Below are positions 6,102 through 49,157 of a DNA stretch of 64,000 bases, one piece after another. The translations under genes and the position numbers were made by a program. Under the pieces are notes generated by a model. The model searched no databases, was not told where the DNA came from, and saw nothing but the letters and a program-made list of their open reading frames with translations. The first letter of the stretch is position 1. Every line of letters begins with the position of its first letter. The stretch comes from a virus (lineage: Duplodnaviria > Heunggongvirae > Uroviricota > Caudoviricetes), in the IMG/VR virus record IMGVR_UViG_3300042869_000717, positions 14,208 to 78,207 of that record. One strand, 5' to 3'.

Positions 6102-6419
6102 ATGACAAGAGAAGAAGTAAACCAATCACTCAAAATGTTTGAGAAATTTCTACAATCCGATAAAGGTCTCGAGATTGCTCATCGATATTCAGACGATATT
6201 TGGTTTAAGTTAGATGATATCCAAACAATTACCGGTGCCGGTGAAAGTTTATACGCAGGAGGGAAATATAATATTTTCATTAAAATTGGTCATCCGTTTA
6301 ATTCCACTGTAATGGTGAGTTGGAAAAACCAACCAAAGAAACAAGATATTGAAAAAGATTTAGAACAATATCTTCCATATTTTGGATTTACCTCTCAAGT
6401 GGGGATAGCAATAATGTAA
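6102..6419 (+). CDS. hypothetical protein
   Basis: ORF track 105 aa. Confidence 0.5.
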   Translation: MTREEVNQSLKMFEKFLQSDKGLEIAHRYSDDIWFKLDDIQTITGAGESLYAGGKYNIFIKIGHPFNSTVMVSWKNQPKKQDIEKDLEQYLPYFGFTSQVGIAIM

Positions 6420-7006
6420 TGATGAAAGAACAAATTAGGAACATACTAAAAAACTATTTAAATGAAATAGTGACCTCAATACCAATTTCAAACCCAAAAT
6501 CGTCACAATGTAAGAAATTCTACGATAGGCTTAAACGTGAATTCCCAAAAACTCCTGAATATATTTTAAGAGAATTTACTACAAATATTTTATGTGGTAA
6601 TAAAGAAGTATTTCACGATGTAATGAATCAATTTTTTGGTGACCCAATACCATTTCTTGGAAAAATGTTATATAATTACCTGAAAGGTCCATGGAAACTA
6701 CAAATAATTCAAGTAAATCCCGAAGATTTTACCGAAAATACGATAAATGCTTTTATTGAAAGAGAATTTGGGAATGTTGATGCCTATATGGTTCCTAATG
6801 ATAAGGAAAGAATGGATATTCAACGAGAATTAGCCTCTTCAACAGGTAAAAATGAACCAATTATCGTAATTAAACATAAAAATGGTAAATATGAATTAGT
6901 TGAAGGTTGGCATAGAACTATGTCATCATTAAAACTTGGTGATAACGGTGAAGACCTCAAAAATTGGGATAAAGTTAAGATTAGGGCTTTTGTTTCAGAG
7001 AAATAA
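6419..7006 (+). CDS. hypothetical protein
   Basis: ORF track 195 aa, ATGA overlap with upstream gene. Confidence 0.55.
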   Translation: MMKEQIRNILKNYLNEIVTSIPISNPKSSQCKKFYDRLKREFPKTPEYILREFTTNILCGNKEVFHDVMNQFFGDPIPFLGKMLYNYLKGPWKLQIIQVNPEDFTENTINAFIEREFGNVDAYMVPNDKERMDIQRELASSTGKNEPIIVIKHKNGKYELVEGWHRTMSSLKLGDNGEDLKNWDKVKIRAFVSEK

Positions 7007-7354
7007 TTCCTCAATATTCTGTTTTCCTTCTAAATTTAATGAATGTACCCTAATTTCGGGTAATTTTACCTCTTTATTCTCACAATAATTAATTAACCAT
7101 TGAGCAGCATCATAACCGGTGTTACCATTTAACATTTTATAGTCAATATTTGATTGATTTTCAGTTAAATAGTGGTTTTGAGATAAGTCATGGTCAAAGG
7201 ACACTAGTTTCGGGATACCAAATCGTTGAATAAGGTTAATAAACTGATAAAAATCCCTTACAACTACCCAAGTATCATTTTCCTCATAAATGGGGTCAAT
7301 TGTGTTCTTAAATACATCATAAGGGGTTCTATTGTCGTCTAAAAATAATTTCAT
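6995..7354 (-). CDS. small receiver-like/CPR-like domain protein (tentative)
   Basis: 119 aa with LDDNR ... SFDHDL ... G(Y/F)D motifs reminiscent of receiver-like domains found beside RNA-repair kinases; immediately downstream of P-loop kinase gene. Confidence 0.45.
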   Translation of the reverse strand: MKLFLDDNRTPYDVFKNTIDPIYEENDTWVVVRDFYQFINLIQRFGIPKLVSFDHDLSQNHYLTENQSNIDYKMLNGNTGYDAAQWLINYCENKEVKLPEIRVHSLNLEGKQNIEELFL

Positions 7355-7371
7355 ACTACAAAAGTATGGAA

Positions 7372-7800
7372 TTAAAGTGAAATTTCAAAACGATTCTTCA
7401 TTATTTCCAATTTATCTTCAGGAACTCCGTGTTCATTGACTCCCCCGTGTCTATTTTCAACAACTAAAGAGTAAACTCTATATCCGAAGTATTCCGCCAT
7501 CTCATTATATTCCGTCATTTCCCACTCTTGGGTGAATGTATTGGAAATAACAATTCTTTCCGTGTCGTGAGCCATCTCATATCTTACATTAATTTTACAC
7601 CACTCGTGGGCGTGTTTAATGTTGGATGGAACAAACTCATATACACCAGTCTCCGGATTAATAAAAAACATATCGGCTTCGTAATGAACTCCACCTAGTG
7701 ATTCTGCTAATGTTGTTTTACCACTTCCTGGTATTACGGGAGCCCCCTTAAAAGGAATAGTTCCTTCAGGGGGCTCACTTTTTTAACTAAATTATCCATA
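7372..7800 (-). CDS. P-loop NTPase, polynucleotide-kinase-like (AAA_33-type) protein
   Basis: track ORF 7372..7671 extends in frame upstream to ATG at 7798-7800 (MDNLVKKSEPPEGTIPFKGAPVIPGSGKTTLAESL...): Walker A GSGKTT; C-terminal HGVPEDKLEIMKNRFE resembles Pnk kinase C-terminus. Confidence 0.6.
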
Positions 7801-7899
7801 TTTTATGTTTTTTTTTTATTTTTTAGTGTATTTATATTAAGAGGTTCCCCTTAATTAGGGGACAAATATAATAATTAATTTTAATTAAAAAAAATAATA

Positions 7900-8805
7900 A
7901 TGTCAAATCTCACAAGAAAATGCCCTATTTGTGGTGTAACAATAAGTTACACTAACAAATACAATATGATAAAAGCGGATAACAAAAATAGTAATTGTAA
8001 AAGTTGTGGGTTAAAATTAACTATAACCGAAGATAGGAGAGAACGTATGAAACAACGAGTTCTTGGCGACAATAACCCTATGTTTGGAAAATTTGGTGAG
8101 TTAAATCCATTTTTTAATAAAAAACATACTGAAGACACCAAACAAAAAATGAGAGAAAAAAAAGATTTTTCAGTATATAAAACAGAAGAATTTAGGGAAA
8201 AAATGAGAATTTTATCATTAAGTAATGTCACTATGTTTGGGGACTCTACTTATTATTATTATTGGGTTGATAAATATGGAGTTGAAGTTGCGGAAGAAAA
8301 AATGAAAAAATTAAAAATAAAACAATCTAAAAATACTTCAGGAGAGAATAACCCTATGTTTGGAAAATCTGTCTATGATGTTTGGGTTGAAAAATATGGA
8401 ACCGAAATTGCTAATGTTAAATTAGAACAATTAAAAATAAAACAATCTAAAAATAGTTCGGGAGAGAATAACCCAATGTTTGGAAAACCAAGTCCTGTTG
8501 GTTCCGGTAATGGTTGGTCAGGATGGTATAATAATTGGTTTTTTAGAAGTATTAAAGAATTATCATACATGATTAATGTTATTGAAAAAAATAACATTGA
8601 GTGGATTAATGCAGAATCTAATATGTATCAGATAAATTATACTGATTATAAAGGTAATAACAGAACTTATACCGCTGATTTTATATTAAAAAACAAATAT
8701 TTAATAGAAATTAAGCCAAAAAAACTTTGGTATAGTGATTCGGTGGTTAGAAAAAAATATCGGCAATTAAATTTTGTGATGAAAATAATCTTACATACAA
8801 ATTAA
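7900..8805 (+). CDS. putative homing endonuclease: N-terminal CxxC zinc ribbon, four NUMOD3-like NPMFGK repeats, C-terminal PD-(D/E)xK-like motif (DF..LIEIK)
   Basis: NPMFGK x4 (NUMOD3 hallmark of GIY-YIG/HNH homing endonucleases); CPICG...CKSCG; internal ~120-bp DNA tandem duplication. Confidence 0.6.
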   Translation: MSNLTRKCPICGVTISYTNKYNMIKADNKNSNCKSCGLKLTITEDRRERMKQRVLGDNNPMFGKFGELNPFFNKKHTEDTKQKMREKKDFSVYKTEEFREKMRILSLSNVTMFGDSTYYYYWVDKYGVEVAEEKMKKLKIKQSKNTSGENNPMFGKSVYDVWVEKYGTEIANVKLEQLKIKQSKNSSGENNPMFGKPSPVGSGNGWSGWYNNWFFRSIKELSYMINVIEKNNIEWINAESNMYQINYTDYKGNNRTYTADFILKNKYLIEIKPKKLWYSDSVVRKKYRQLNFVMKIILHTN

Positions 8806-8970
8806 GAGATACACCTAATTTATCGTCTAAAAAATTAAAAGAATTGTATGAAACAAAACAAATTATTTTTACAAAAAGATATGAAGAAAAATTTGTTGAA
8901 AAATATTTAAAAAATAATGTTGATTGATTAAGTATTTATAAAATAAGTCGCCAAAATAATATTTTTTACG

Positions 8971-9727: not shown

Positions 9728-10162
9728 ATGACTAAAGTAAAAATTTCTACAGACAAGGGAGATATGATTGCCGAACTATACGACAACGAGACTCCAATCG
9801 CAGTAAACAACTTCAAAGACTTAATCGGTAAAAAATTCTATGACGGATTAAATTTTCATAGAGTTATTCCTAATTTTGTAATTCAAGGTGGGTGTCCAAA
9901 TGGTACAGGTTCCGGTGGTCCGGGATATAATATCCCATGTGAAGTTACCGCCCCTAAACAATTTCACGATAGAGGGGTATTGTCAATTGCACACGCAGGA
10001 CGTAACACAGGAGGGTCACAATTCTTCATTTGCCATAACAGACAAGGAACCCAACATTTAGATGGTAATCACACTTGTTTTGGTAAAGTTAATGAAGGGT
10101 TAGAGGTAATCGACGCAATCAGTGCCGGTGATAAAATAAACTCAATCTCAATAATTGATTAA
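9728..10162 (+). CDS. ppiB: peptidyl-prolyl cis-trans isomerase, cyclophilin type
   Basis: FHRVIPNFVIQGGCPNGTGSGGPGY ... GVLSIAHAGRNTGGSQFFI ... LDGNHTCFGKV: canonical cyclophilin motifs over whole length. Confidence 0.9.
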   Translation: MTKVKISTDKGDMIAELYDNETPIAVNNFKDLIGKKFYDGLNFHRVIPNFVIQGGCPNGTGSGGPGYNIPCEVTAPKQFHDRGVLSIAHAGRNTGGSQFFICHNRQGTQHLDGNHTCFGKVNEGLEVIDAISAGDKINSISIID

Positions 10163-11213: not shown

Positions 11214-11561
11214 ATGAAATACATTATAACAGAAAGTCAAAAAAATCGAGGTATTCTCAAATACCTTAACACCGAATATGGTGATTTGAAACCATATAAA
11301 ACAGACGAATACCCTAACCACATATTCTTTATGAAAGATGGTGAAGTTATGTTTGACTATAATGAAAAAAATGGGGTTGCTCATGTCTCTTATACTCATA
11401 TTTGGTCATTTTTGAAATCCTTTTTTGAGTTAAATAATGAGGAAATAGAAGACCTAACGAAAGCGTGGGTGGAGGAACATTACAAATTGGAGGTGACAAC
11501 AACTATTGATGAATATTTGAGCCGTGTTTATTGGTGGAGGAACATTACAAATTGGAGGTGA
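11214..11561 (+). CDS. MKYIITESQ-leader family protein (3' end reads through first repeats of the CRISPR-like array; true stop uncertain)
   Basis: N-terminus MKYIITESQKNRG; last ~30 codons coincide with 36-bp repeats. Confidence 0.5.
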   Translation: MKYIITESQKNRGILKYLNTEYGDLKPYKTDEYPNHIFFMKDGEVMFDYNEKNGVAHVSYTHIWSFLKSFFELNNEEIEDLTKAWVEEHYKLEVTTTIDEYLSRVYWWRNITNWR

Positions 11562-11700
11562 CAACAACGCTTTTGCGTTACATCGAAAAAGGAAAAAGGT
11601 GGAGGAACATTACAAATTGGAGGTGACAACAACCCACATTGATTTATTTCGGAAAAAAAAGTCTGGTGGAGGAACAATACAAATTAAGTAAATTATGAAA
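11468..11700 (+). CRISPR. cas-less CRISPR-like mini-array: 3 identical 36-bp repeats (GGTGGAGGAACATTACAAATTGGAGGTGACAACAAC) + 1 degenerate terminal copy, spacers 29/29/31 bp
   Basis: repeats at 11468-11503, 11533-11568, 11598-11633, degenerate 11665-~11700; period 65-67 bp; alternative: diverged tandem duplication. Confidence 0.4.
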
Positions 11701-16773: not shown

Positions 16774-17022
16774 ATGAGAAATATAATAAAAATAAATGAG
16801 AATGATTTAAACCTTATTATTAAAAAGGTAATAAAAGAACAATATGAGTATAATCCTGATAGATTATATCGAAAAAGTTCGATTGTTTCGAGATTAAGAC
16901 AGGAACCAAAATATCTTCAAAAATACATCAAAGACCTCCCTAATTTAAGTAAGGAAGGTTCTGATGAAATATTTACCAAAATACCTCAGATTGTTTGGCA
17001 AGTTTTATTTAGTCGATACTAG
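16774..17022 (+). CDS. hypothetical protein (track ORF 16711..17022 trimmed to MRNIIKI)
   Basis: upstream part overlaps divergent gene. Confidence 0.4.
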   Translation: MRNIIKINENDLNLIIKKVIKEQYEYNPDRLYRKSSIVSRLRQEPKYLQKYIKDLPNLSKEGSDEIFTKIPQIVWQVLFSRY

Positions 17023-17710
17023 GAAATTCAACTTCATTAGTATCAGGATTCCAATCGATGGTCATTGGTTTTTGAGTATAAGTATATCTTTCATTTAAAA
17101 CCGCAGTATTGAAGTGGTGAGTATCTCCTTTTCTAACATAACCATAACCTGTATGAATATGACCACAAAGATGAATTTTAGGGGTTATAATTCGTAATCT
17201 CTCAACTAATAATTCACAACCCAAATTATCGTGTCTTCTACCTTCAACGGTATCTAATATTCCAAACGCAGGTCCGTGAGTTAATAGGATATCAGTGTCA
17301 TCAGGGATTCCTTCCCATTTACCCGATAATTCAATTCCATTTTTAGGTAAGTTAAATGCCCATCCATGAAATTCTGGTTGGTAAGGACTACCATAGATTT
17401 TTACTTCTCTTTCATCCCCAATTTTAACTTTAACTTCACTATCTTGAAGATAAGTAATTCCACTGTAGAAATCCAAAATTTCTTTCACCTTATCAGCATT
17501 GTCTTGGAATCCCCAATCGTGGTTTCCAGCAATGAAAATCTTGTGAGTATAACCTTCGATGTTGTTGAACCACTTACAGAACTCTCTGATTTCATGTTCG
17601 TATCCCATAGATGATATATCACCACTATGAAGTAGTAAATCTCCACCAGGTAAATCTCCGGTTATTTGTTTGTGCTTATTATGCGTATCAGAGATTAGCG
17701 AAATCTTCAT
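17009..17710 (-). CDS. calcineurin-like metallophosphoesterase
   Basis: DTH ... GDxxxxG ... GNHD ... THGP ... GHIH motif series. Confidence 0.8.
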   Translation of the reverse strand: MKISLISDTHNKHKQITGDLPGGDLLLHSGDISSMGYEHEIREFCKWFNNIEGYTHKIFIAGNHDWGFQDNADKVKEILDFYSGITYLQDSEVKVKIGDEREVKIYGSPYQPEFHGWAFNLPKNGIELSGKWEGIPDDTDILLTHGPAFGILDTVEGRRHDNLGCELLVERLRIITPKIHLCGHIHTGYGYVRKGDTHHFNTAVLNERYTYTQKPMTIDWNPDTNEVEFPSID

Positions 17711-25987: not shown

Positions 25988-26737
25988 TTATTCCAACCAA
26001 ATCCAAGTTGGGAAGTTTTTATTTCTTATTCTATCTCTAACACTACTATCAGGCATATTAAAAAATTTTGAAGCTTCGACCGCCGAATTAAAAACTAACC
26101 CATCAATATTACATTTTTTGGAAGATGGTTTGGAGTGTCCTACTTTTTTCAAACTCTCTTTAATTTTGTTTCTATGTTCTTCAGAATTAACTTTACCTTT
26201 TCGTCCTGATGGTTTCCCTTTACGGGTTAAAGACATTTTCTTTTTAGTTTCTTCAGAATGTTTATTTTTTGAACTACTAACACTTAATTTATCTTTTGTT
26301 TCATCTGTGTGAGTTTTACCAAAAAATGGATTTTTATCACCACCATATTTACCAATCCGACTATTACTTATTTTTTGTTTGGTCTCATCTGTTAGTTTTA
26401 TCCCATATCTTGGATTATTTTTACCACTAATACTTTCAGAGTATTCTTTTCTAATAATTTCATATAATTTACCCGATACTTGATATCTTTCCTGATAATC
26501 TCTATTAACATTAGACATATTCCACAACGCCATTCTTAATTTTCGGTTTTTAGGATAAATCTCACATAATAATAAATGACAAATAAAATGTTCTTTCGCG
26601 GTTAATTTAACTAAATTCCAACTATCATTAGTTCCACCCATACATTTAGGTATTATGTGATGAGTTTCAGTATAACCGGTTAATAATCTATCTTTTCCGT
26701 TATCAGTAATCTTATTATAAATTTTAATATAATCCAT
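25988..26737 (-). CDS. HNH homing endonuclease with NUMOD3 repeats
   Basis: THHIIPKCMGGTNDSWNLVKLTAKEHFICH (HNH); KNNPRYG / KNPFFGK NUMOD3 repeats. Confidence 0.8.
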   Translation of the reverse strand: MDYIKIYNKITDNGKDRLLTGYTETHHIIPKCMGGTNDSWNLVKLTAKEHFICHLLLCEIYPKNRKLRMALWNMSNVNRDYQERYQVSGKLYEIIRKEYSESISGKNNPRYGIKLTDETKQKISNSRIGKYGGDKNPFFGKTHTDETKDKLSVSSSKNKHSEETKKKMSLTRKGKPSGRKGKVNSEEHRNKIKESLKKVGHSKPSSKKCNIDGLVFNSAVEASKFFNMPDSSVRDRIRNKNFPTWIWLE

Positions 26738-26802: not shown

Positions 26803-27636
26803 TTAAATTGCCAATTCTAATGGAGAATTTATTTTTTTACCTATATTATCGTAAATAATAAAATCATCAATTGTATACTTGTAGAAGTTTTTGACTTCTT
26901 TTAACTCTATTTTTGGTTGGATGTTAATACCCAAATTAACCCTATCTAATATCTCGTTAGCCGCATCATAATGTCTATCGTAGATATGTAAATTTTGTGT
27001 TAAATGACAAAACTTCCCAACCTGATAATTCAAATGTCCGGCAACCATCATTAAAAATGACACATATTGGATTTTATTTATAAAACCAGCTGTAATATAA
27101 TCATTACTTCGTTGGATTAGAGTCATATCTAAAAACATAACACCATTAACTTTTCTAACCGACCAAATTGTTTCATACGCACAAGGATGTAATCCTTTGG
27201 TGTCTTTCAAATCTTGATATTGATATAAATTTATGATGTGTCGTCTTGAAAATGGGTCATTTTTTAATCCACCCAATAAATCATTCATTAAATTATATTT
27301 TGATACCGTCGCACCATATCTTTGACCTATTGTATCATCACCAATATTCCATTCATCCCACCATAAAACACCTTTTTCTCTTGCTGTAACCAAAGAACTA
27401 TCCTGTGATTGGTAAATCCATAATATTTCTTTAATTCCGGTCTTAATCGCTGTGTTTCGTAATGTTGTTATTGGGAACTCACCTTTTGAAATATCATATT
27501 CCTCAAAAACTTGGGTGATGAATTTACTATGAGCCGGTGTTCCATCAACATATTTTGGTCTTGGGTCTTCATCCAAACAACCTTCAGATAGAATTTTACG
27601 GAGGTTATCATTATAGTATTTATCAGCTTTATTCAT
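26803..27636 (-). CDS. thyA: thymidylate synthase family enzyme (ThyA or dUMP hydroxymethylase-like)
   Basis: RRHIINLYQ...GLHPCA (nucleophile Cys) ... LIQRSNDYITAGFINKIQYVSFLMMVA ... HLTQNLHIYDRH; Asn retained at dUMP-specificity position; motif after Cys diverges from canonical HAFFQFYV. Confidence 0.8.
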   Translation of the reverse strand: MNKADKYYNDNLRKILSEGCLDEDPRPKYVDGTPAHSKFITQVFEEYDISKGEFPITTLRNTAIKTGIKEILWIYQSQDSSLVTAREKGVLWWDEWNIGDDTIGQRYGATVSKYNLMNDLLGGLKNDPFSRRHIINLYQYQDLKDTKGLHPCAYETIWSVRKVNGVMFLDMTLIQRSNDYITAGFINKIQYVSFLMMVAGHLNYQVGKFCHLTQNLHIYDRHYDAANEILDRVNLGINIQPKIELKEVKNFYKYTIDDFIIYDNIGKKINSPLELAI

Positions 27637-30168: not shown

Positions 30169-30428
30169 TTTTTGTGTTGTTTAGATTGTAACCATTGTTT
30201 AAAATTATTCATACAGTTTGATTCAAAGTCCTTTTCCGGAAATGAAGTTGTTTGATGATATTCATATCCATATTTGGATGATTTAATCATTTCCTCCTCA
30301 TTATATCCATTAGAATTCAATTTACCTAAATTATAAGAATCCACCATCGATTTAATGATGGATTCTTTGTCCAAAAATGAATTATGGACAATATTTGATT
30401 CGTAAATTTCTTCTAATTTTTGTTTCAT
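30165..30428 (-). CDS. hypothetical protein
   Basis: ORF track 87 aa. Confidence 0.4.
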   Translation of the reverse strand: MKQKLEEIYESNIVHNSFLDKESIIKSMVDSYNLGKLNSNGYNEEEMIKSSKYGYEYHQTTSFPEKDFESNCMNNFKQWLQSKQHKK

Positions 30429-31504
30429 GACTCACTATCTTTTTGCCAAAATGGTTTACTATATGTTGGACGTATTAGATTCCAAATATAGGAAGAATAA
30501 TCTTTTTTATCAAACATTTTAAATAAAATTGGTTGAGCAAATTTATCTTGTGTCATCACCCATTCGGCGAATGATTTTCTGTCGGTAACCGGTTCTTTGT
30601 CGTTGTATTTACCATACATATAGTAGTCAAATGTTTTTCCAACCCTTTCACCAATTTGGAAGTATGAATATCTTAAATCTTTAACAACATTTTTAACCCA
30701 CTTGTCAAATTCATCCGGAACACTATCCAAATATTCATTTATATCTTTACCATCTTTCAACACTTCCCAAATATTAATATTCGAAAACCCAGTTAAGATT
30801 CTATGGAGACGAACATAATTTTCTCCCTTTATTTTCATTCTAAACCCACTTCTAAATCTTATGACAAAACCTTCTTGATTATCCTTGATAATTGATTTGA
30901 GGGTCTTATAATCATCAATCCCATCATATCGTTTAACAACCGGAAACCCAACAACTTCACAAACTTGAATCAAAGAAGAATAATCAAATTCTTTTCCTGA
31001 AACATTACTAATCATAGTAAGTACTACCAAACTTTCATCATCACCATAATCACAAACAATACGATTCTCTTTGTAAATTATTTCTACTAATGTGGTGTAC
31101 CCTTTTGGAACTGGTTGGATGTCATATTTTTTTAATATTTCTCTACCTCTAATTGCTTGGTCTGAAGTGAATGAACCCTTACTTGCAAAAATCCATTGTC
31201 CTTCATACCAAAACAAAATCCCTAACGACCCATCCATTTTCTCAAACACTTCAAAAGTTTCATTTGGGATTTCACTTGGGTCATGTTCTTCCATATTGAA
31301 GAATTTACCAAATGGTTTGGCAACGACATTACCATCATTATCCAAAACAAGTCCTCGACAATTTTTGGTAATATTATCCCATTTACCCTCAAACTGAGTT
31401 TGTCTTGAGTAATTATATATTGCAATTGGAAGTGTTGGATGAGGGTTTTTCTCAATCAATCCTTCACTCACGTATCTGTCTATTATTTCTATATCAATTT
31501 TCAT
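30425..31504 (-). CDS. rnlA: ATP-dependent RNA ligase, T4 Rnl1-like (tRNA repair ligase family)
   Basis: IAIYNY ... CRGLVLDNDG ... KFFNMEE; EKMDGSLG (KxDG adenylation motif I); WIFASKGSFTSDQA; EGFVIRF...KIKGENYVRLH align with T4 Rnl1 motifs; start trimmed to MKIDIEI (upstream extension runs through terminator hairpin). Confidence 0.8.
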   Translation of the reverse strand: MKIDIEIIDRYVSEGLIEKNPHPTLPIAIYNYSRQTQFEGKWDNITKNCRGLVLDNDGNVVAKPFGKFFNMEEHDPSEIPNETFEVFEKMDGSLGILFWYEGQWIFASKGSFTSDQAIRGREILKKYDIQPVPKGYTTLVEIIYKENRIVCDYGDDESLVVLTMISNVSGKEFDYSSLIQVCEVVGFPVVKRYDGIDDYKTLKSIIKDNQEGFVIRFRSGFRMKIKGENYVRLHRILTGFSNINIWEVLKDGKDINEYLDSVPDEFDKWVKNVVKDLRYSYFQIGERVGKTFDYYMYGKYNDKEPVTDRKSFAEWVMTQDKFAQPILFKMFDKKDYSSYIWNLIRPTYSKPFWQKDSES

Positions 31505-31565: not shown

Positions 31566-32420
31566 TTATCTATTAAGAAGTATTCCGGATGTAGAACCAA
31601 AAACATTGTTTTGTCCGTAAGGAGATTTACCTTTTTCAGCCCATACTCTTTCAGTTTCTGCTCTGTATAACTCTAACAATTTAGGTTGAGATAATATCTC
31701 TTTTGTTTTGGCGTCGTATAATGCCGCTTCATAATTACCTTTCGCCAACGCAACTTTCTTAAGTGCCGTTTGTTCTGCTTGAATTGTTTGAGATTTAATC
31801 GTTGCCGTTTCTTGGATTACTTTAATTTTAGTCTCAATTGCCTTTCTATAAGACGCAGGAATATCCATTTTTAAGACTGCGATGTTATTTAATATGAACC
31901 CTTCTTTTTCTAATGCTTTTTCCAAAGTTCTTGTGACATTTGCTTCATATACATTTCTATGTTGGAGTAAACTATCGGATGCGAAACTAACCGCATTATC
32001 TAATAATTCTTTTCTTACAATATTACGAACTCTTGTTTCAATTAATTCTTCCATACCTACACGATATTTTGTGAATAACATTGTCGCTGATTCTCGTTTT
32101 AATTGAAGGTTAATTGCAACATCCAATCCAAAAGTGGCACCATCACCCGAAGTTACATCAATATGTTCATCTGTTGGTGAATCTTCATCTACTGATGATG
32201 TCCATACTTTATGTTGAACTGATGTTGGATACATATACACATCTTGTGTTGGTGGGAAATACATAATAAGACCCGACGCCATTTCAATATTTGGAACCCC
32301 CTTGTCGTTTCCAATCTGATTCACTACTAATGCGACTTCCGCTGAGTCCGCAATTTTACAAGAACTAACTCCTACAATAAACAATAACACTACTCCTACA
32401 ATAATTAAAATTCTACTCAT
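31566..32420 (-). CDS. SPFH/band-7 (stomatin/prohibitin-like) domain lipoprotein
   Basis: signal peptide with lipobox LLFIVGVSSC; SPFH-like core and C-terminal coiled coil. Confidence 0.7.
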   Translation of the reverse strand: MSRILIIVGVVLLFIVGVSSCKIADSAEVALVVNQIGNDKGVPNIEMASGLIMYFPPTQDVYMYPTSVQHKVWTSSVDEDSPTDEHIDVTSGDGATFGLDVAINLQLKRESATMLFTKYRVGMEELIETRVRNIVRKELLDNAVSFASDSLLQHRNVYEANVTRTLEKALEKEGFILNNIAVLKMDIPASYRKAIETKIKVIQETATIKSQTIQAEQTALKKVALAKGNYEAALYDAKTKEILSQPKLLELYRAETERVWAEKGKSPYGQNNVFGSTSGILLNR

Positions 32421-33482: not shown

Positions 33483-33766
33483 GTTATTTTAACTTTATCT
33501 AATCTATCTATTAACCACTCTTCATTAACATAATCCGGTCTTTCCCCTAAAATAATTTTATCAATTGTTTCACCAAGAATTTCCATTAACATTGATTTAA
33601 TTTCTGAAGGGGCGTCCACGGCATTATAAAGAAAACAATCCTGAATCATCTCATAAGTTAATGGAACTTCAATAATAACTCGTTTGGGAATTAAATTCCC
33701 TTCCTTATCAAAATGATTTTCTTCTATTCTTGTTTTATACATATTACTTTCTTTTTCGACCTTCAT
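33479..33766 (-). CDS. hypothetical protein
   Basis: ORF track 95 aa. Confidence 0.45.
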   Translation of the reverse strand: MKVEKESNMYKTRIEENHFDKEGNLIPKRVIIEVPLTYEMIQDCFLYNAVDAPSEIKSMLMEILGETIDKIILGERPDYVNEEWLIDRLDKVKIT

Positions 33767-34406
33767 CGGTCATTACTTCATCTGTGTGGTGGTCATCATC
33801 CATATTAGAAAGAATTTCTCTCGTTTTAACAATCTTAATAACATTATCTAACGAGTATGGCATAAAAAACATATTACCATCAATTCCAACATCCATTCTC
33901 CTTCCTTTACCAAATACTTTTTGTTGAGGTAGATGACAATGTCCGTGTAAGTGGATGTGTCCTTTGTTTAATCCATCCCAAGAATCAATAGGGTAGTGCA
34001 TTAAAACCAAAGTATCGAATTTATACATCAATTTTGTGTAGTGATTTACACTTGCAAACATTTCTTGACAATCCTCTCGGTTGTTCTCAATGTGGTGGTC
34101 GTGATTCCCTAATATAAGGTGAATCTCTTTACATACAATTCTATCTCTAAAAATTTTTACATTTTCAAAGCCGCCAAAACTCCAATCACCCAAGTGAATT
34201 AAAACATCGTCTTGACCAACAACACTATTAATGTTATTCACAATAATGTCGTTCATCTGTCCAATAGTTTCAAAATCTCTTGTTTGACTTTCAGGAATTG
34301 ACCCATCAGGTAATCTCCATGCCGTTACACCTCGACATATATTCTTATGTCCAAAGTGAGTGTCGGATACAATCCAAACTTTTCTATGTTTTTCTATCTT
34401 AATCAT
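33744..34406 (-). CDS. calcineurin-like metallophosphoesterase (second copy)
   Basis: VSDTHFGH ... HLGDW ... LGNHDHH ... HLHGHCH motifs. Confidence 0.8.
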   Translation of the reverse strand: MIKIEKHRKVWIVSDTHFGHKNICRGVTAWRLPDGSIPESQTRDFETIGQMNDIIVNNINSVVGQDDVLIHLGDWSFGGFENVKIFRDRIVCKEIHLILGNHDHHIENNREDCQEMFASVNHYTKLMYKFDTLVLMHYPIDSWDGLNKGHIHLHGHCHLPQQKVFGKGRRMDVGIDGNMFFMPYSLDNVIKIVKTREILSNMDDDHHTDEVMTDEGRKRK

Positions 34407-40576: not shown

Positions 40577-41320
40577 TTATTTTCTTTTAAGAATTTCTTT
40601 CTCATAATACTCATCAAAACCAATCATCATATCAGTCATTGATTGATTTTTCTCAACACCGATAATTTTATCAATTAATCCAAACTCTAACGCTTCATCT
40701 GAATTAAACCATTTGTCATTTCTTGATGATTCTAACATTTGTTCAAATGTTTTACCACAATTCTCAGCTAATATTTTAAATAACAAGTAGTTATATTTTT
40801 CAGCTTCAAGTTGACCAATTCTAGTGTCTTGAACATTCCCTTGTGTTCCGTGAGACACCATGTGAGTCATAACCTTTGAAAAAATTAAAGATTCCCTTTT
40901 ACCTTTTGCCCCTGAAGATAGTAATACCGAACCCATGGACGCACACATACCAATATTTGTGGTTGCAACATCGGCATTGATGAAGTTCATAGTATCTCTA
41001 ATACCTAAACCACTTAATACACTACCACCCGGAGTTTGTAGATATAAATTGATATCTTTTTTCTTATCCAAATTATCTAAGAAGATAAGTTGTGATTGTA
41101 TAATATCACCCATTCTATCGTCAACCGGACCCGAAGCCCAAAGAATTCTATCCATCATCAAACGAGAAAAAATATCCATTTGAGTTACTCTCATCTCTCT
41201 TTCCTCTAAAATATATGGAGTCATCGAGTTTTGAATGTGATTGTTGAAGTTATGTAAATCCAAAGATGGTTTACCTAAATGTTTTGTGTAATAATTTTGA
41301 AATTCTTGTCCTACGTTCAT
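40577..41320 (-). CDS. clpP: ClpP-family serine protease (possible prohead/maturation protease)
   Basis: LQTPGGSVLSGLGIRDTMNFI ... GMCASMGSVLL (Ser) ... MTHMVSHG (His) ... EALEFGLIDKII; full S14 peptidase signature. Confidence 0.85.
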   Translation of the reverse strand: MNVGQEFQNYYTKHLGKPSLDLHNFNNHIQNSMTPYILEEREMRVTQMDIFSRLMMDRILWASGPVDDRMGDIIQSQLIFLDNLDKKKDINLYLQTPGGSVLSGLGIRDTMNFINADVATTNIGMCASMGSVLLSSGAKGKRESLIFSKVMTHMVSHGTQGNVQDTRIGQLEAEKYNYLLFKILAENCGKTFEQMLESSRNDKWFNSDEALEFGLIDKIIGVEKNQSMTDMMIGFDEYYEKEILKRK

Positions 41321-43787: not shown

Positions 43788-43870
43788 GGAGGAGTGGACA
43801 GTTGGTTGTCGAGCGGTCTTGAAAACCGTCGCTCGGAAACGGGTTGCAGGTTCGAATCCTGTCTCCTCCG
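43788..43870 (+). tRNA. tRNA-Ser (anticodon TGA), type II
   Basis: acceptor GGAGGAG/CTCCTCC, anticodon loop CTTGAAA, long variable arm, T-loop TTCGAAT. Confidence 0.6.
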
Positions 43871-43971
43871 CGGGTTAGTTAAATAGTTTAATCCACACCC
43901 AAAAAAGAATGTTCGGAGTGAAGCCGAGGCGAACGTAATTGTGGTAACCGTTCTTTAACTAAAAAATATTT

Positions 43972-44043
43972 TGCCCCTTCGTATATCGGTTAGTACACAT
44001 GGTTTTGGTCCATGCGGGAGTGGTTCGATTCCATTAGGGGTAA
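43972..44043 (+). tRNA. tRNA-Gln (anticodon TTG)
   Basis: acceptor TGCCCCT/AGGGGTA (U1-A72 as in E. coli Gln), anticodon stem CATGG/CCATG loop TTTTGGT, T-loop TTCGATT. Confidence 0.55.
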
Positions 44044-44097
44044 CAAGGGGTTCGGTGGAAACCCACGAGTAGGTGATGAGCCTATGTCCACCACAAT

Positions 44098-44169
44098 ACT
44101 GATGTAGCTCAGTGGTAGAGCACTTCTTTCATACGGAAGGTGTCGGTGGTTCAATCCCACCCATCGGTA
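44098..44169 (+). tRNA. tRNA-Met (anticodon CAT), copy 1
   Basis: acceptor ACTGATG/CATCGGT, D-arm GCTCAGTGGTAGAGC, anticodon loop TTCATAC, T-loop TTCAATC. Confidence 0.65.
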
Positions 44170-44175
44170 CAATTT

Positions 44176-44246
44176 ACCTCGTTGGCGTAATAGGAGCGTA
44201 TTTGTTTTACATACAAATGGCGGTGGAGCGTAACCATCACGAGGTA
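44176..44246 (+). tRNA. tRNA-like, anticodon TAC (Val?) with non-canonical D-arm and T-loop AGCGTAA
   Basis: perfect 7-bp acceptor ACCTCGT/ACGAGGT, perfect anticodon stem ATTTGT/ACAAAT loop TTTACAT, T-stem GGTGG/CCATC; D-stem not foldable. Confidence 0.35.
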
Positions 44247-44251
44247 CAAAA

Positions 44252-44332
44252 GGAAAATAAAAGTCGTTCGGATACGGCACCCTGACTGTAAATCAGGTCC
44301 TCACGGGAGTGGTTCGAGTCCACTATTTTCCA
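44252..44332 (+). tRNA. tRNA-Tyr (anticodon GTA), D-arm atypical
   Basis: acceptor GGAAAAT/ATTTTCC, anticodon stem CCTGA/TCAGG loop CTGTAAA, T-arm AGTGG-TTCGAGT-CCACT. Confidence 0.45.
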
Positions 44333-44491
44333 CTATAATAATGGTTTTCTCTATCCATCGGATGTCGACAATTCAGGATAGGTCAAAGAAATCATCACCC
44401 CCCTGAAAAGGGAATGTGCCGAGGGCCTCGTAAAACTACGATTAAGCACTTAAGATTGGAGCGAGACGGGTACTCCAACATTATTATAATT

Positions 44492-44564
44492 GTGTCTTTC
44501 GTATAGCTGGTGCGTACGTCCGCCTGAAGAGCGAAAGGAACAGGTTCGATTCCTGTAGGACACA
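44492..44564 (+). tRNA. tRNA-Phe (anticodon GAA)
   Basis: acceptor GTGTCTT/AGGACAC, D-arm GTAT..GTAC, anticodon loop CTGAAGA, T-arm ACAGG-TTCGATT-CCTGT. Confidence 0.6.
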
Positions 44565-44714
44565 CAAACGAGGTAATCGTTCCCAGAGTTGGTAAGGCCT
44601 TACCGGGACTCAAGAAAAGTAAAGTTACAGATGGATGCGTAACGCCTTGGACTACTATGACTTAATAATGATACGAGCTTCATACGTTCGCAAAATAACA
44701 TAGTGGTCAAAATC

Positions 44715-44786
44715 GGATTGGTAGCTCAGAGGAAGAGCGGCAGGTTGTTAGTCTGCGGGTCGGGATTTCGAAATTCCCCCGGTCCT
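44715..44786 (+). tRNA. tRNA-Asn (anticodon GTT), copy 1 (one T-stem mismatch)
   Basis: acceptor GGATTGG/CCGGTCC, D-arm GCTCAGAGGAAGAGC, anticodon stem GCAGG/TCTGC loop TTGTTAG. Confidence 0.5.
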
Positions 44787-44850
44787 CGAGGTCACCTTAC
44801 ACCTCCTATATGGCACTCGGTCCGTTAAGCCGGGGAAGTAAGGTAAAAAT

Positions 44851-44924
44851 TCTTCAGTAGCTCAGTTGGTTAGAGCATCGTACTGTTAATACGAGAGTCC
44901 TAGGTTCAAGTCCTAGCTGGAGAG
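44851..44924 (+). tRNA. tRNA-Asn (anticodon GTT), copy 2
   Basis: acceptor TCTTCAG/CTGGAGA, D-arm GCTCAGTTGGTTAGAGC, anticodon stem TCGTA/TACGA loop CTGTTAA, T-arm CTAGG-TTCAAGT-CCTAG. Confidence 0.65.
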
Positions 44925-44939
44925 CAAAATAAAGTACAT

Positions 44940-45013
44940 GGTGATTGTAGCTGAATTGGTAAAGCGTCTGGTTGTGGTCCAGGAGATTGTGGGTTCGAGT
45001 CCCACCTTTCACA
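44940..45013 (+). tRNA. tRNA-His (anticodon GTG) with extra 5' G(-1); acceptor has two U-U mismatches
   Basis: anticodon stem TCTGG/CCAGG loop TTGTGGT, T-arm GTGGG-TTCGAGT-CCCAC, G-1 present. Confidence 0.45.
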
Positions 45014-45068
45014 CTTAATTAAAATATTATGAAAAAGGTATTAGACAATCTTTGAGGTCCACTAAACA

Positions 45069-45272
45069 ATGGACTCAGAGATTATGAGTGTAAACACAAA
45101 CAGAATGAAATTGAACAAGGCGACTTGTTCAAAAGATTATAGATTGATTTGGTTAAAGTTTGAATACCCACCATATTGGGACGAGGGTGTTCATTACAGA
45201 AAAGGTCAGTTCTCTCACAAATATAGAGAACACAAAACTTGGAAGTATAACCGAAAAACTCAATGGAAATAA
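45069..45272 (+). CDS. hypothetical small protein within tRNA cluster (uncertain)
   Basis: ORF track 67 aa; no overlap with tRNAs. Confidence 0.25.
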   Translation: MDSEIMSVNTNRMKLNKATCSKDYRLIWLKFEYPPYWDEGVHYRKGQFSHKYREHKTWKYNRKTQWK

Positions 45273-45512
45273 AAATTGGTAAATATTAAGTATCTTTGTA
45301 AATTAATCTGGGACAATCAGATAGAGGTGAAACCTTAAAAGTTTCTGAAATATAATACAGAAGTCCAGGTAAGTCTGGAATAGAATATCTCTAATTTACA
45401 TAAAGATACTATCAGTAATGGTAAATGTGTTGTTCCCGGTGGGAGGGGAATGGAATAGTCGGGTGAGATTATAAATTTTAAAGGATTTATGTCTATATTT
45501 GCACAACACGAG

Positions 45513-45660
45513 GAGTTCTCAACCTCAAAATTAAAGTAGTTCAGTTGGTTAGAACAGACATACCTAACTCGAAAGAGAAAAACAACGAATAAGGGACGGA
45601 GTCACATCCAATACCGAACTAAGTGGAAAAGGAAATCAGGTCGTAGGTTCGAGTCCTACC
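45513..45660 (+). ncRNA. 148-nt tRNA-like gene with ~75-nt internal insertion (canonical acceptor ATTAAAG/CTTTAAT, D-arm GTTCAGTTGGTTAGAAC, T-arm GTAGG-TTCGAGT-CCTAC)
   Basis: 5' and 3' tRNA halves intact, anticodon arm not identifiable; preceded by conserved motif GAGGAGTTCTCAACCTCAAA. Confidence 0.35.
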
Positions 45661-45765
45661 TTTAATTCGAAATGTGTTATTCCCGATACGGTACGCAAAC
45701 CGTTGTGAGATGAGGGGTACTAAAAACTAGAGTATAAGTTCTCTATGACACAGAGGAATTCTCAA

Positions 45766-45908
45766 CCTCAAATTGGTCAGGTGGCGGAATTGGTAGACGC
45801 GTAATGGGTGATTGATTAATCGGGCCGTGAGACATCACATTAAATATGTTGACCATCCCGAAGAACCGAGTAAAATTGGTCTTTTCAATCGTACAGGTTC
45901 GAGACCTG
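45766..45908 (+). ncRNA. 143-nt tRNA-Leu-like gene with ~55-nt internal insertion (acceptor GGTCAGG/CCTGACC, Leu-type D-arm TGGCGGAATTGGTAGACGCG, T-arm ACAGG-TTCGAGA-CCTGT)
   Basis: D-arm matches bacterial tRNA-Leu; preceded by GAGGAATTCTCAACCTCAAA. Confidence 0.4.
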
Positions 45909-45965
45909 TCCTGACCACAAGGATGTTCCACCCTTACCAAATAATAGGGATGACTGATGGAAAGA

Positions 45966-46038
45966 CATCAAATTGTCTCCATCGTTCAACTGGAAAGGAC
46001 TTATCTTTACGACAGATAGAATAGGGGTTCGAATCCTC
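45966..46038 (+). tRNA. tRNA-Arg (anticodon ACG)
   Basis: acceptor GTCTCCA/TGGGGAC, anticodon stem TATCT/AGATA loop TTACGAC, T-loop TTCGAAT. Confidence 0.65.
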
Positions 46039-46071
46039 TTGGGGACACAAAAAAAACTTGAACTTTTCAAT

Positions 46072-46079
46072 ATTTTTGA
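46072..46079 (+). promoter_or_regulatory. -7 box TATTTTTG upstream of 46108
   Basis: TAnnTTTG 29 nt before ATG. Confidence 0.4.
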
Positions 46080-46107
46080 TATATTTATTAATAAACAAAT
46101 TAAGTAA

Positions 46108-46902
46108 ATGGAAACAGAAAAATTAAAAGATTCAATATTAAAATTGAGGTTAGAAGGATATAGTATTACAAATATTAAAAATATATTGGGTTGTAGCGTC
46201 GGTGTTATTTCATATCATATTAATAAAAATGGTATGGGAGGTGTTCACGAAAATTATAAAACAACAACAATAAATGATGAAGATTTTTTAAAACTAATTG
46301 ACAAATCGGTAATTGATAAAATTATTAATTTAAAACAAAATGGTGAAACATATAAAAGTATTTTTCCCCAAGTTAATATTAGTCAAGATAAAGTAATCAG
46401 AATTTGTAAAATTTTTAATCTTAATAAAAATAAAAATGAATTAAGATTTAAAGATGAGGATTTTATAAAAAAAATAAAAGAATTATATGACAAAATTGGT
46501 AGCATCCGAAAAGTTAGTGAAATATTAGGAGTTGGTAGAAAGATTATTAGTAGTATTGTTGAGGTCAAAACTCAAACCGCGATTGAACGTAGGAAAAGTT
46601 CTGTTGAACACGTAGTTAGATGTCGTAAAAATAGAAAAAAAAGATTAGTTGAGTATAAAGGTGGTTGTTGTCAGAGATGTGGTTATAGTAAATCTATGAA
46701 CGCCTTACAATTTCACCATATCAATCCTGATGAAAAAGATTTTACTATAGGGGGTAAAAATTATTCAGAAGAAAAAATGAAAAAAGAGGTTGATAAATGT
46801 GTTTTGGTTTGTAGTAATTGTCATTGTGAAATACACGAAGAAATAACTGAAACAGGTAAATCAGAATTTATTGTTAATTATTCAAAAAGAGAATTGCTGT
46901 AA
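46108..46902 (+). CDS. HNH homing endonuclease with N-terminal HTH repeats, inserted in tRNA cluster
   Basis: GGCCQRCGYSKSMNALQFHHINPDEKDFT ... CVLVCSNCHCEIHEE (HNH); two HTH-like N-terminal modules. Confidence 0.8.
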   Translation: METEKLKDSILKLRLEGYSITNIKNILGCSVGVISYHINKNGMGGVHENYKTTTINDEDFLKLIDKSVIDKIINLKQNGETYKSIFPQVNISQDKVIRICKIFNLNKNKNELRFKDEDFIKKIKELYDKIGSIRKVSEILGVGRKIISSIVEVKTQTAIERRKSSVEHVVRCRKNRKKRLVEYKGGCCQRCGYSKSMNALQFHHINPDEKDFTIGGKNYSEEKMKKEVDKCVLVCSNCHCEIHEEITETGKSEFIVNYSKRELL

Positions 46903-46972
46903 CGGTATCAGAACACACTGCTAATGTGTCCCTCCTTAAATGGGGGTATGGGTTCGAATCCCATATTCTCTA
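46888..46972 (+). tRNA. tRNA-Ser (anticodon GCT), type II; 5' end overlaps last 15 nt of HNH gene
   Basis: acceptor AGAGAAT/ATTCTCT perfect, anticodon stem ACACA/TGTGT loop CTGCTAA, long variable arm CCTCCTTAAATGGGGG, T-arm ATGGG-TTCGAAT-CCCAT. Confidence 0.7.
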
Positions 46973-46986
46973 CAAAAAAAATATAT

Positions 46987-47058
46987 TAGGGTGTATTCTC
47001 GGGGTGAGAAGCCTGCATTGGAGGCAGGAAGCGGAGAGTTCGACCCTCTCCACCCTAA
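46987..47058 (+). tRNA. tRNA-Pro (anticodon TGG)
   Basis: acceptor TAGGGTG/CACCCTA, D-stem TTCT/AGAA, anticodon stem CCTGC/GCAGG loop ATTGGAG, T-arm GAGAG-TTCGACC-CTCTC. Confidence 0.7.
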
Positions 47059-47063
47059 CAATT

Positions 47064-47136
47064 CGGTCAGTAGCTCAATCGGTAGAGCATTCGCCTGATA
47101 CGCGAAAGGTAGTGGGTTCGATACCCACCTGACCGA
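47064..47136 (+). tRNA. tRNA-Ile (anticodon GAT)
   Basis: acceptor CGGTCAG/CTGACCG, D-arm GCTCAATCGGTAGAGC, anticodon stem TTCGC/GCGAA loop CTGATAC, T-arm GTGGG-TTCGATA-CCCAC. Confidence 0.75.
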
Positions 47137-47324
47137 CAAATGTGGCTCATAAAGTTTGATTATTAATCTCAAATTACTTATATTTTGAGCCGAATAACAA
47201 AACAAAATGAGCTCAATAATCCCCTAAAGCTTTAAGGTGAAGCACGATACTTTTAATATCGGGAAAATGGGCCAGTACCATTTGGGGGAACAAAAAAAAA
47301 ATGTTTAATTAAAAATTAATAGTC

Positions 47325-47834
47325 GTGAGTAGTTACCAAAAAACTTTGGTTTTGGATTCAAGTTTTATGGCGAGGAGTATTATTTCCACAGAGAGGGCTT
47401 TCGTCATTTCTTATAAGGGTAATGCTGACGTTATAAATGAACATCCGGAATCATTCAAATTAGTGAATCCTGAATTGGATATCAAAAAACCTTCAATTAT
47501 TCGGGTCTACAAATATGTGAATCAGATAATTCAAAAAGTTCCTTTAAGTAGAGAGAATGTTTATCGTAGAGATAACTTTGAGTGTGTATATTGTGGAGAC
47601 AATAATAGAAAGACGCTAACTTTGGACCACGTAATACCCCAATCTAAGGGGGGGAAAGACAGTTGGGACAACTTAGTTACCGCTTGTAGAAGGTGTAACG
47701 GTGAGAAGTCCAATTTGACGTTGGAGGAATACGGTAAGGAAATTCCTCAACCAAGGAGACCTCATTACTTGATGTTAATGAAACAAGTTCATCACGAAAT
47801 CCCTGATGAATGGAGACCCTACTTATTCTTTTAA
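47325..47834 (+). CDS. HNH endonuclease (McrA-like)
   Basis: FECVYCGDNNRKTLTLDHVIPQSKGGKDSWDNLVTACRRCNGEK. Confidence 0.75.
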   Translation: MSSYQKTLVLDSSFMARSIISTERAFVISYKGNADVINEHPESFKLVNPELDIKKPSIIRVYKYVNQIIQKVPLSRENVYRRDNFECVYCGDNNRKTLTLDHVIPQSKGGKDSWDNLVTACRRCNGEKSNLTLEEYGKEIPQPRRPHYLMLMKQVHHEIPDEWRPYLFF

Positions 47835-47836
47835 CT

Positions 47837-48013
47837 ATGATAACAGAAAGTCAGTATAAAACAGCACTTAAAGTGGTGTCGGAATACAAGAAACAACAAA
47901 AATATTTAAAACCTAAGGAATGTCAACATTATAATATGGATTGGAGCATTGAAGAACAGAGATACGTTTGTCTTGATTGTGATTTCAAGGGACCTAAAAA
48001 AAGTGAGGAATAA
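47837..48013 (+). CDS. small zinc-ribbon protein with MITESQ N-terminus (truncated leader?)
   Basis: MITESQYKTALK...; CQHYNMDW...CLDC. Confidence 0.45.
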   Translation: MITESQYKTALKVVSEYKKQQKYLKPKECQHYNMDWSIEEQRYVCLDCDFKGPKKSEE

Positions 48014-48240
48014 TGTCAAATAAAATAAAATTCATTGGTAATGGTGATGATATATTCAAAAATGAAATTCATTTTACATCACCGGTTGGAAGTGATTACA
48101 CTTTATGTGGTTTAACACTTGATGGGGATTTTATGACTTGTGGTCAATTTGTAAAAACAAATGAAAATGTAAATTGTGAAGACTGTCAAAAAATTGTTAA
48201 CTTTTCAAAAACCATTAAAAAGACTTGGAAAACAATTTAA
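48013..48240 (+). CDS. small Cys-rich protein
   Basis: ORF track 75 aa, ATGA overlap. Confidence 0.45.
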   Translation: MSNKIKFIGNGDDIFKNEIHFTSPVGSDYTLCGLTLDGDFMTCGQFVKTNENVNCEDCQKIVNFSKTIKKTWKTI

Positions 48241-48256
48241 AGAAAATTCATAATTA

Positions 48257-48287
48257 TTTGGTAGATTAAATTTTAGTTGTATCTTTG
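48257..48287 (+). promoter_or_regulatory. promoter TTTG(48257)/TATCTTTG(48280)
   Basis: 19-bp spacing, 23 nt upstream of ATG 48310. Confidence 0.5.
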
Positions 48288-48309
48288 TCAAAATCAAAAA
48301 AGATAAGAT

Positions 48310-49152: not shown

Positions 49153-49157
49153 ATATT

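Follow-up and report, generated by a model that had tools for sequence, protein, structure and literature searches.

Natural examples of translational bypassing are, to our knowledge, very few: beside gene 60 of phage T4 with its homologs, they comprise elements of yeast mitochondria and a single candidate from a Streptomyces phage. Here we describe a candidate of another kind, a programmed hop over a stop codon and a few extra bases within the Walker A motif of a polynucleotide kinase (PNK)-like gene, which appears to have been brought in by a homing-endonuclease cassette. The gene lies in DNA of a virus of the Caudoviricetes (IMG/VR record IMGVR_UViG_3300042869_000717, positions 14,208 to 78,207); this whole stretch of 64,000 nucleotides is called the window below, and loci found elsewhere carry L numbers.

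In the T4 mobA/gene 60 system, the bypass insert disrupts the site of the nuclease, and several phages keep the insert after the nuclease has been lost (bioRxiv 10.1101/2022.08.31.505936). The proposed 'driver' of forward bypassing in gene 60 is mRNA pairing at the ribosome exit (bioRxiv 10.1101/2024.12.09.627546). Shorter counterparts of bypassing have been 'long presumed' (PMC5009743). In the synthetic 'stop-hops' of Weiss et al. (1987) in E. coli, a stop stands between matched codons and 9 nt are decoded as one amino acid; the synthetic hop classes include +5 and +6, and these events were of low efficiency, in artificial constructs with no stimulators (PMC5009743). A 2016 review of recoding lists stop-hops only in synthetic constructs, no natural in-frame stop hopping being known (PMC5009743). 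In the terminase gene of Streptomyces phage phiHau3, UUA-triggered bypass of 10-nt inserts has been put forward, with a proposed 5' stem-loop (PMC10732093). In the papers searched, we found bypass described for no such kinase.

Two open reading frames (ORFs) adjoin on the minus strand of the window, 6995..7354 (119 aa) and 7372..7671 (99 aa). According to the original prediction, which had been made from the sequence without database searches, the second could be extended in frame to an ATG at 7798, revealing a Walker A kinase. Both ORFs exist as it described, and GSGKTT does lie upstream of the 99-aa ORF in the frame of that ORF. The extension itself fails, since the ATG sits at 7799..7797 in another frame, which then runs into a TAA at 7736..7734. 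Read upstream in its own frame, the 99-aa ORF gives ...KGAPVIPGSGKTTLAESLGGVHYEADM and, further upstream, a stop; in the PGSGKTT frame ATG, GTG and TTG are all absent upstream of the M at 7671. The DNA at the junction reads CTC CCG TAA TA CCA GGA AGT GGT AAA, so that Walker A is split in two. A leader of 21 aa (MDNLVKKVSPLKELFLLRGLP) supplies an extension at the N terminus, the beta-1 strand and the initial half of the motif, and the body resumes behind the gap with GSGKTTLAESLGG... (Table 1). Skipping the 8 nt TAATACCA yields LLRGLP-GSGKTT. The full kinase is thus obtainable solely via a recoding event, which had been overlooked, and no simple ORF from an ATG encodes it.

The break is present, identically, in L001, an independent ENA contig assembled by MEGAHIT from Illumina reads, which matches the window with 99.99% identity over 12.4 kb, and the 99-aa ORF is recorded on at least 36 contigs (104 index blocks). 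Its presence in an independent assembly and on many contigs argues that the break is real and no error of the window. The longest of these contigs measures 314,729 bp, which makes this a jumbo phage. Searches for close copies gave little: the exact junction pattern had no match in IMG/VR, and blastn of window positions 6400..8900 against GenBank phages had none either. A scan of GTDB genomes returned one chance match, in a GC-rich metagenome-assembled genome, and gave no clue to the host and no prophage copies; a single metagenome scan, with an overly loose pattern, showed no kinase among the matches listed (at least 120).

We assembled a set of variants from IMG/VR by pattern scans, by a kinase-based search and by an endonuclease-based search. 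It comprises 89 distinct kinase genes, of which 60 are intact and 29 interrupted, with none left unclassified. In all 29 the interruption is at the same position, and the stop, which may be TAA, TGA or TAG, directly follows the take-off codon. This codon is CCN, or TCC in one lineage whose motif has Ser there. The gap ahead of GGN-NNN-GGN-AAR measures 5, 6, 7, 8 or 9 nt, so that in-frame, +1 and +2 relations are all seen, and its removal restores [RK]G[LVI][PS]-G[SAC]GK[ST] in every interrupted gene. No insertion in this motif occurs in 58 aligned intact proteins or in the 60 intact genes. The gap ends in CCA, CCG, CCT, CTA, TCA, ACA or ACT, and each of these triplets could form two or three pairs with the take-off tRNA, G.U included: 19 of the 29 landing codons are CCN, eight are CTA or TCA (G.U at one position), and two are ACA or ACT (two of three positions). 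Given all three frame relations and the gap-free motif of the family, only one mechanism, downstream re-pairing of the P-site tRNA, fits all 29.

Leaders and bodies are both well kept. The leader has 21 aa in 23 of the 28 relatives and 20-23 aa in the others, one of which begins at GTG, and all 29 interrupted bodies have the features of full-length kinases. The ratio of nonsynonymous to synonymous substitution rates (dN/dS) between close interrupted pairs is 0.04-0.22. A second phage, L003, has CCG TAA CCA GGG at the break, with the stop in frame; its dN/dS against the window is 0.15, and the leaders of the two are more diverged than the bodies, which suggests that the break is old. Upstream of the start codons of the window and of related interrupted loci, the DNA is AT-rich (for example TAATAAATAT ATG) and the Shine-Dalgarno motif is absent; as sequence goes, this hints at a host independent of Shine-Dalgarno initiation and, as a speculation, at Bacteroidota.

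Of special interest is a GC-rich hairpin in the leader, with arms GAGCCCCCU...AGGGGGCUC and an inner stem, the 3' arm of which abuts the take-off codon. Perfect GC-rich hairpins of at least 9 bp number just two in the 64-kb window (31% GC), the second of which resembles an intergenic terminator. The minimum free energy (MFE) of the leader hairpin is -25.9 kcal/mol (z = -3.1). When the MFE of the 48 nt ending at the take-off codon is compared, 22 interrupted genes fall between -18.1 and -25.9 kcal/mol and 58 intact genes between -0.4 and -7.2, the two ranges being disjoint (Mann-Whitney p = 6e-12). Interrupted variants found later lie between -19.1 and -27.0, which brings the interrupted genes scored to 27. 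The intact genes encode a nearly identical peptide with AT-rich codons.

Covariation was found within subgroups. For one subgroup (11 sequences), the share of paired cells is 93.5%, compared with 46-63% when the partners are slid, and five pairs have changed on both sides, a number reached by none of 500 shuffles. The subgroup of the window (four sequences) adds three compensatory pairs, for which the shuffle control was not significant (33/500); between L003 and the window, two base pairs of the hairpin are altered on both sides. Several pairs are U.G, consistent with selection on the sense-strand RNA. An attempt to fit one consensus hairpin to all variants failed, there being three pairing registers (column sums 52, 53 and 54). 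What is conserved is the stability and position of the hairpin, rather than its sequence. An intrinsic terminator could be ruled out, as no T-run follows it, and we infer a stimulatory role.

Divergent from the kinase stands a putative homing-endonuclease gene, whose product has a zinc finger at the N terminus, a PD-(D/E)XK-like motif at the C terminus, and four NUMOD3 motifs. The NUMOD3 matches are above the Pfam cut-off; the putative nuclease domain is indicated by a weak Phage_endo_I match (18 bits, cut-off 29) and a conserved DF...E.KPK. In the window its ORF (7900..8805, 301 aa) is cut by an A7 run at 8751..8757; L001 has A8 at this run and an endonuclease of 342 aa. This difference may reflect an error in sequencing, a genuine polymorphism inactivating the nuclease, or the presence of a slippage site.

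The limits of the cassette can be read from L096, a syntenic locus with an intact kinase and 80-88% nucleotide identity, which in blastn aligns to the window until 8930 and again from 7722. Between these points, 1,207 bp of the window stand in place of 86 bp of L096, and one of the two boundaries is the hop site. Homologs of the endonuclease (44-54% identical) occupy the same divergent position in 15 of 22 interrupted loci and in none of 58 intact ones (Fisher p = 3e-11); these 22 loci had been found without the endonuclease as query. A comparison of L066 with L087 gives 98-100% identity for the cassette, as far as the P-loop, and 50-90% for the flanks, and other pairs are alike, with a sharp drop at the hop site; this contrast is the signature of homing with co-conversion. 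Four loci (L003, L005, L013, L130) have lost the endonuclease and kept the interruption, and in three (L306, L308, L332) the endonuclease is upstream on the same strand.

Some observations on related endonucleases may be added. Two IMG/VR loci, L311 and L350, have more distant homologs directly upstream of intact kinases with no stop or gap, and L350 retains AGG GGG GTT codons; these may be hop-free cassettes or earlier stages of the element. In L005, where the upstream endonuclease is missing, a cysteine-rich, endonuclease-like ORF with a repeated 'SDETKLK' lies 405..1178 nt downstream of the P-loop codon of the kinase. The window itself contains a second homing-endonuclease-like gene (25988..26737, minus strand) with three NUMOD3 stretches and an I-TevI DNA-binding domain. 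It adjoins a thymidylate synthase gene (26803..27636, minus strand), a classic target of I-TevI-type elements.

We propose that the cassette (7723..8929) invaded the 5' end of the kinase gene, bringing the 21-codon leader with its strong hairpin, the stop and extra bases within Walker A, and the endonuclease gene. The Walker A sequence was probably the target of the endonuclease, in which case a carrier would be immune to its own nuclease. During translation, the P site would hold peptidyl-tRNA-Pro on CCG while UAA occupied the A site; proline at the C terminus is a poor context for termination, and release would accordingly be slow. Most interrupted variants have a C right after the stop, and this is a weak termination context in E. 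coli. At take-off the tRNA would unpair from the mRNA. By then the 5' hairpin arm would have left the ribosome, and its 3' counterpart would occupy the E site and exit channel. As the hairpin refolded at the exit it would pull the mRNA, in keeping with the driver proposed for gene 60, and the ribosome would move forward by 8 nt in the window and by 5-9 nt across the family. The tRNA would re-pair on CCA and decoding would restart at GGA, giving ...LLRGLP-GSGKTT..., the exact Walker A of the family, and a predicted junction peptide ...ELFLLRGLPGSGK.... The hopped kinase may act with a cyclic-phosphate-processing receiver (cREC), a metallophosphoesterase or HAD phosphatase, and an Rnl1 ligase in the healing and sealing of RNA ends, probably those of tRNA.

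We hold with good confidence that the locus combines a homing-endonuclease cassette and a programmed hop in the translation of the kinase gene. A broader claim, made with slightly less assurance, is that these loci are probably the first natural, evolutionarily maintained family of short stop-hops (5-9 nt), driven by a hairpin, with take-off at a Pro-stop, carried by a homing-endonuclease cassette hiding in Walker A, and independent of T4 gene 60/mobA.

Several points weigh against the proposal. The hop is deduced from the comparison of sequences, and its efficiency is likewise presumed. The cassette is mobile: L066 and L087 share identical cassettes yet have diverged bodies. The intact state of the bodies could therefore be due partly to recent homing into live genes, and not to selection while interrupted, and this mobility makes dN/dS weaker as evidence. 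The conservation of leader and hairpin comes partly from the shared ancestry of the cassette, and covariation was counted within subgroups only, as the pairing registers differ. Ten of the 29 landing codons are not CCN, and two of these pair at only two of three positions. Finally, unlike in gene 60, an A-site stem-loop is absent and the gap holds no obvious Shine-Dalgarno-like element.

Of the other explanations, the one that survives best, improbable as we consider it, is that a selfish cassette inactivated the kinase, with leader, hairpin and stop as baggage spread by homing and no full-length kinase made. It would account for a mobile cassette that is often more alike between genomes than the kinase body, a recent insertion could explain the intact bodies, and RNA-repair genes are accessory. 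Yet none of the 29 bodies has a further lesion, despite endonucleases just 44-54% identical to that of the window, a divergence that indicates an old cassette family. Through three frame relations the cassettes have kept a start codon, beta-1 in frame (hhhhRG[LVI]P) and a landing codon able to re-pair, and the hairpin covaries. The four loci without the endonuclease also retain the hop site and an intact body, L003 among them with its dN/dS of 0.15 against the window.

Ordinary recoding of several kinds would be a somewhat poorer explanation still: the stop would be read through where the gap is 6 or 9 nt, gaps of 5 and 8 would be crossed by -1 frameshifting at C-CCG, and those of 7 by +1 frameshifting at CCU-UGA, each event adding one to three residues to the P-loop. 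Every one of these events has known precedents at stop codons; CCU UGA is like shift-prone sites, and C-CCG in the window permits re-pairing on CCC. Against this, three separate mechanisms would be needed at one homologous site, and their products would have insertions between RGxP and GxGK that are seen in no intact member of the family. The codon after the stop is that of P, L or S, all pairable with a tRNA-Pro anticodon, whereas readthrough would select the amino acid. Taken singly, -1 frameshifting at C-CCG was rejected as fitting the window only (in L005 the -1 codon is UCC, not CCC), and readthrough as fitting the in-frame variants only, where it would lengthen the P-loop. Reassignment of the stop codon is unlikely, as three stops are used at the site and the ORFs of the window are normal under table 11.

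It is very unlikely that the gap is removed at the RNA level, by editing, a tiny splice made by the phage ligase or polymerase slippage, or that two polypeptides arise by reinitiation. The phage does have an RNA ligase and end-healing enzymes, and L012 has a GTG after the stop. No conserved structure surrounds the gap, however, the hairpin being entirely 5' of it; there is no homopolymer on which polymerase could slip; and a start codon after the stop is present in L012 only. As separate polypeptides the parts would include a P-loop domain lacking beta-1, and a P-loop NTPase domain without this strand is not expected to fold. An error of sequencing or assembly in the window, suggested by the single-base difference in an A-run of the endonuclease gene between independent assemblies, can practically be dismissed, as the 8-nt insertion is not homopolymeric, occurs unchanged in an independent assembly of Illumina reads, recurs on many contigs, and has 28 other diverged variants.

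If the hop is the right reading, the locus shares much with T4 gene 60/mobA. In both, a highly conserved motif is interrupted, a stop follows the take-off codon, and take-off and landing codons match; in both, the interruption is part of a free-standing homing-endonuclease cassette, and the nuclease is sometimes lost and the bypass kept. The two differ in the gene, a topoisomerase in T4 and a PNK-like kinase here, and in the endonuclease, which here joins NUMOD3 to a zinc finger and a PD-(D/E)XK-like motif. Gene 60 has a gap of 50 nt against 5-9 nt here, and its take-off codon is GGA against Pro or Ser codons. The A-site stem-loop and the Shine-Dalgarno-like element in the gap have no counterpart here, for which 5-9 nt would leave no room. 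The nascent chain has just 21 aa at take-off, a length that is conserved. The two systems share no sequence homology. By its anatomy, the kinase element would belong to the mechanism class of gene 60 and not to its element family.

The synthetic stop-hops have exactly the same geometry; the kinase site differs from them in being natural, conserved in 29 variants and equipped with its own hairpin. Of natural short bypasses, the phiHau3 terminase candidate comes nearest: it too lies in a phage gene and has, besides a stem-loop proposed as a 5' stimulator, a slow A-site codon. That codon is a rare sense codon tied to the tRNA supply of the host, with a proposed regulatory function, and the candidate comprises three terminase genes only, with no homing-endonuclease link. 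What is new here is a far shorter gap with simpler signals, in an element, gene and nuclease family unrelated to those of gene 60.

If true, the proposal would provide a natural family of stop-hops together with a ready set for comparative mutagenesis, 29 natural variants from which sequence rules could be mapped, spanning three stops, gaps of five lengths, landing codons both cognate and near-cognate, and many versions of the hairpin. Refolding of the mRNA on the exit side and re-pairing in the P site would become directly testable in a minimal system. It would also be a second, independent alliance of a homing endonuclease with a recoding signal that colonises an essential motif without intron or intein. 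Gene callers give such kinases as truncated 99-aa 'hypothetical proteins', and similar cases have probably been overlooked.

The kinase assignment of the original prediction is borne out by a profile search and by structure. With the gap deleted conceptually, the protein matches AAA_33 (E = 2e-8, 35 bits, cut-off 27) and PHROG 2071. The family is very large and consists of stand-alone proteins of about 127-130 aa starting MKELFLLRGLPGSGKST, to which the conceptual fusion of the window aligns gap-free. An AlphaFold2 model (pLDDT 84) of an intact homolog with 89% identity has T4 Pnk as its best structural match (E = 5e-6, TM 0.67), followed by the Pnkp kinase of C. thermocellum, mammalian PNKP and Pnkp1. 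As modelled, the fold is T4-Pnk-like and, among P-loop kinases, closest to PNKs. D40 and R114 are invariant in the family and may be counterparts of the catalytic Asp (general base, D35) and the phosphate-binding Arg (R126) of T4 Pnk. A profile search of PDB sequences with the kinase found no relative, and GenBank phage records label the subfamily 'ATPase' or 'polynucleotide kinase'. The kinase fold thus matches that of T4 Pnk and bacterial Pnkp; the kinase of the window differs in being a stand-alone protein of about 130 aa with no phosphatase fusion.

The original prediction placed this kinase in a heal-and-seal RNA-repair kit, and every other component that it named was recovered (Table 1). 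The 119-aa protein, described as receiver-like by its LDDNR and SFDHDL motifs, is a cREC by profile (PF20274, E = 2e-20, 73.7 bits, cut-off 27, residues 1-117). The Rnl1-type ligase carries the KMDGS, CRG and EGFVIRF that had been pointed out, KMDGS being at residue 123 of the 393-aa ORF and the likely start of the ligase being ATG 31504, and matches PF09511 with 71.5 bits (cut-off 28.3). The two calcineurin-like phosphoesterases and the HAD phosphatase proved to be two Metallophos proteins, MPP1 and MPP2, and a HAD_SAK_2 protein.

Genomic context supports the grouping. When neighbours up to 3 kb from the kinase are counted over 80 distinct related loci, the commonest is an MPP2-type phosphoesterase (46 loci), followed by Rnl1 (21) and cREC (19, often together with MPP2 and Rnl1); MPP1, in five loci, is weakly linked. 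Kinase, MPP2, Rnl1 and cREC frequently form one block, and these neighbourhoods in related phages make a heal-and-seal RNA-repair module a reasonable reading. The repair genes of the window are themselves spread over 57 kb with no operon. As a set, cRec, Rnl1 or Rnl2, PNK, stand-alone SAK-HAD and calcineurin-like phosphatases have already been described as a kit of jumbo phages, with the same domains and the same neighbourhood logic as here, and the linkage of cREC to RNA-repair genes agrees with that account (PMC7824862). The predicted kit therefore stands in its domains and context, with the qualifications that its kinase is no simple ORF and that such kits were known. Protection against anticodon nucleases, also suggested, would be a conceivable function.

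Table 1. Features of the kinase locus and of the RNA-repair genes in the window
Feature	Position	Strand	Details
Kinase leader ORF	7737..7799	-	ATG 7799..7797 to take-off codon CCG 7739..7737; 21 aa
GC-rich hairpin in leader	7740..7776	-	3' arm abuts take-off codon
Undecoded gap (putative), 8 nt	7729..7736	-	stop TAA 7736..7734, spacer TA 7733..7732, landing codon CCA 7731..7729
Kinase body, PNK-like P-loop kinase	7372..7728	-	resumes at GGA 7728..7726; stop 7374..7372
Mobile cassette	7723..8929	.	endonuclease gene, divergent intergenic region and kinase 5' end to hop site
Putative homing-endonuclease gene	7900..8927	+	divergent from kinase
cREC, 119 aa	6995..7354	-	PF20274; 17 nt downstream of kinase
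Metallophosphoesterase MPP1	17009..17710	-	Pfam Metallophos
T4 Rnl1-type RNA ligase	30425..31504	-	RNA_lig_T4_1, 1.2e-19; PHROG 562, 4e-64
Metallophosphoesterase MPP2	33744..34406	-	Pfam Metallophos; PHROG 547, 3e-44
Stand-alone HAD phosphatase, 'Swiss Army Knife' (SAK) RNA-repair type	63010..63597	-	HAD_SAK_2, 3.8e-19
tRNA-Pro (UGG)	46987..47059	+	ARAGORN; normal 7-nt anticodon loop

The tRNA genes, put at about 30 in the original prediction, number 23 by ARAGORN and form an array at 43788..57347. Its tRNA-Pro (UGG) could read both the take-off codon CCG and the landing codon CCA. A further ARAGORN tRNA with a four-base anticodon, gtaa (57181..57257, plus strand, identity not assigned), lies just ahead of tRNA-Leu(taa) and could be degenerate or have an expanded anticodon; its quadruplet has no match at the hop site.

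Other features of the window may be noted in passing. By the precomputed annotation of L001, positions 9728..10162 of the window (plus strand) encode a PF00160 peptidyl-prolyl isomerase of the cyclophilin type, about 2 kb from the Pro-dependent hop site, which is probably a coincidence. At 11468..11685, self-matches that are offset and about 76% identical, seen in blastn of L001 against the window, indicate a tandem repeat with a unit of about 67 nt. A gene for an SPFH/Band 7 protein (31566..32420, minus strand) stands directly upstream of the RNA ligase gene, and a ClpP protease (PF00574, 2e-50) is encoded at 40577..41320 on the minus strand.

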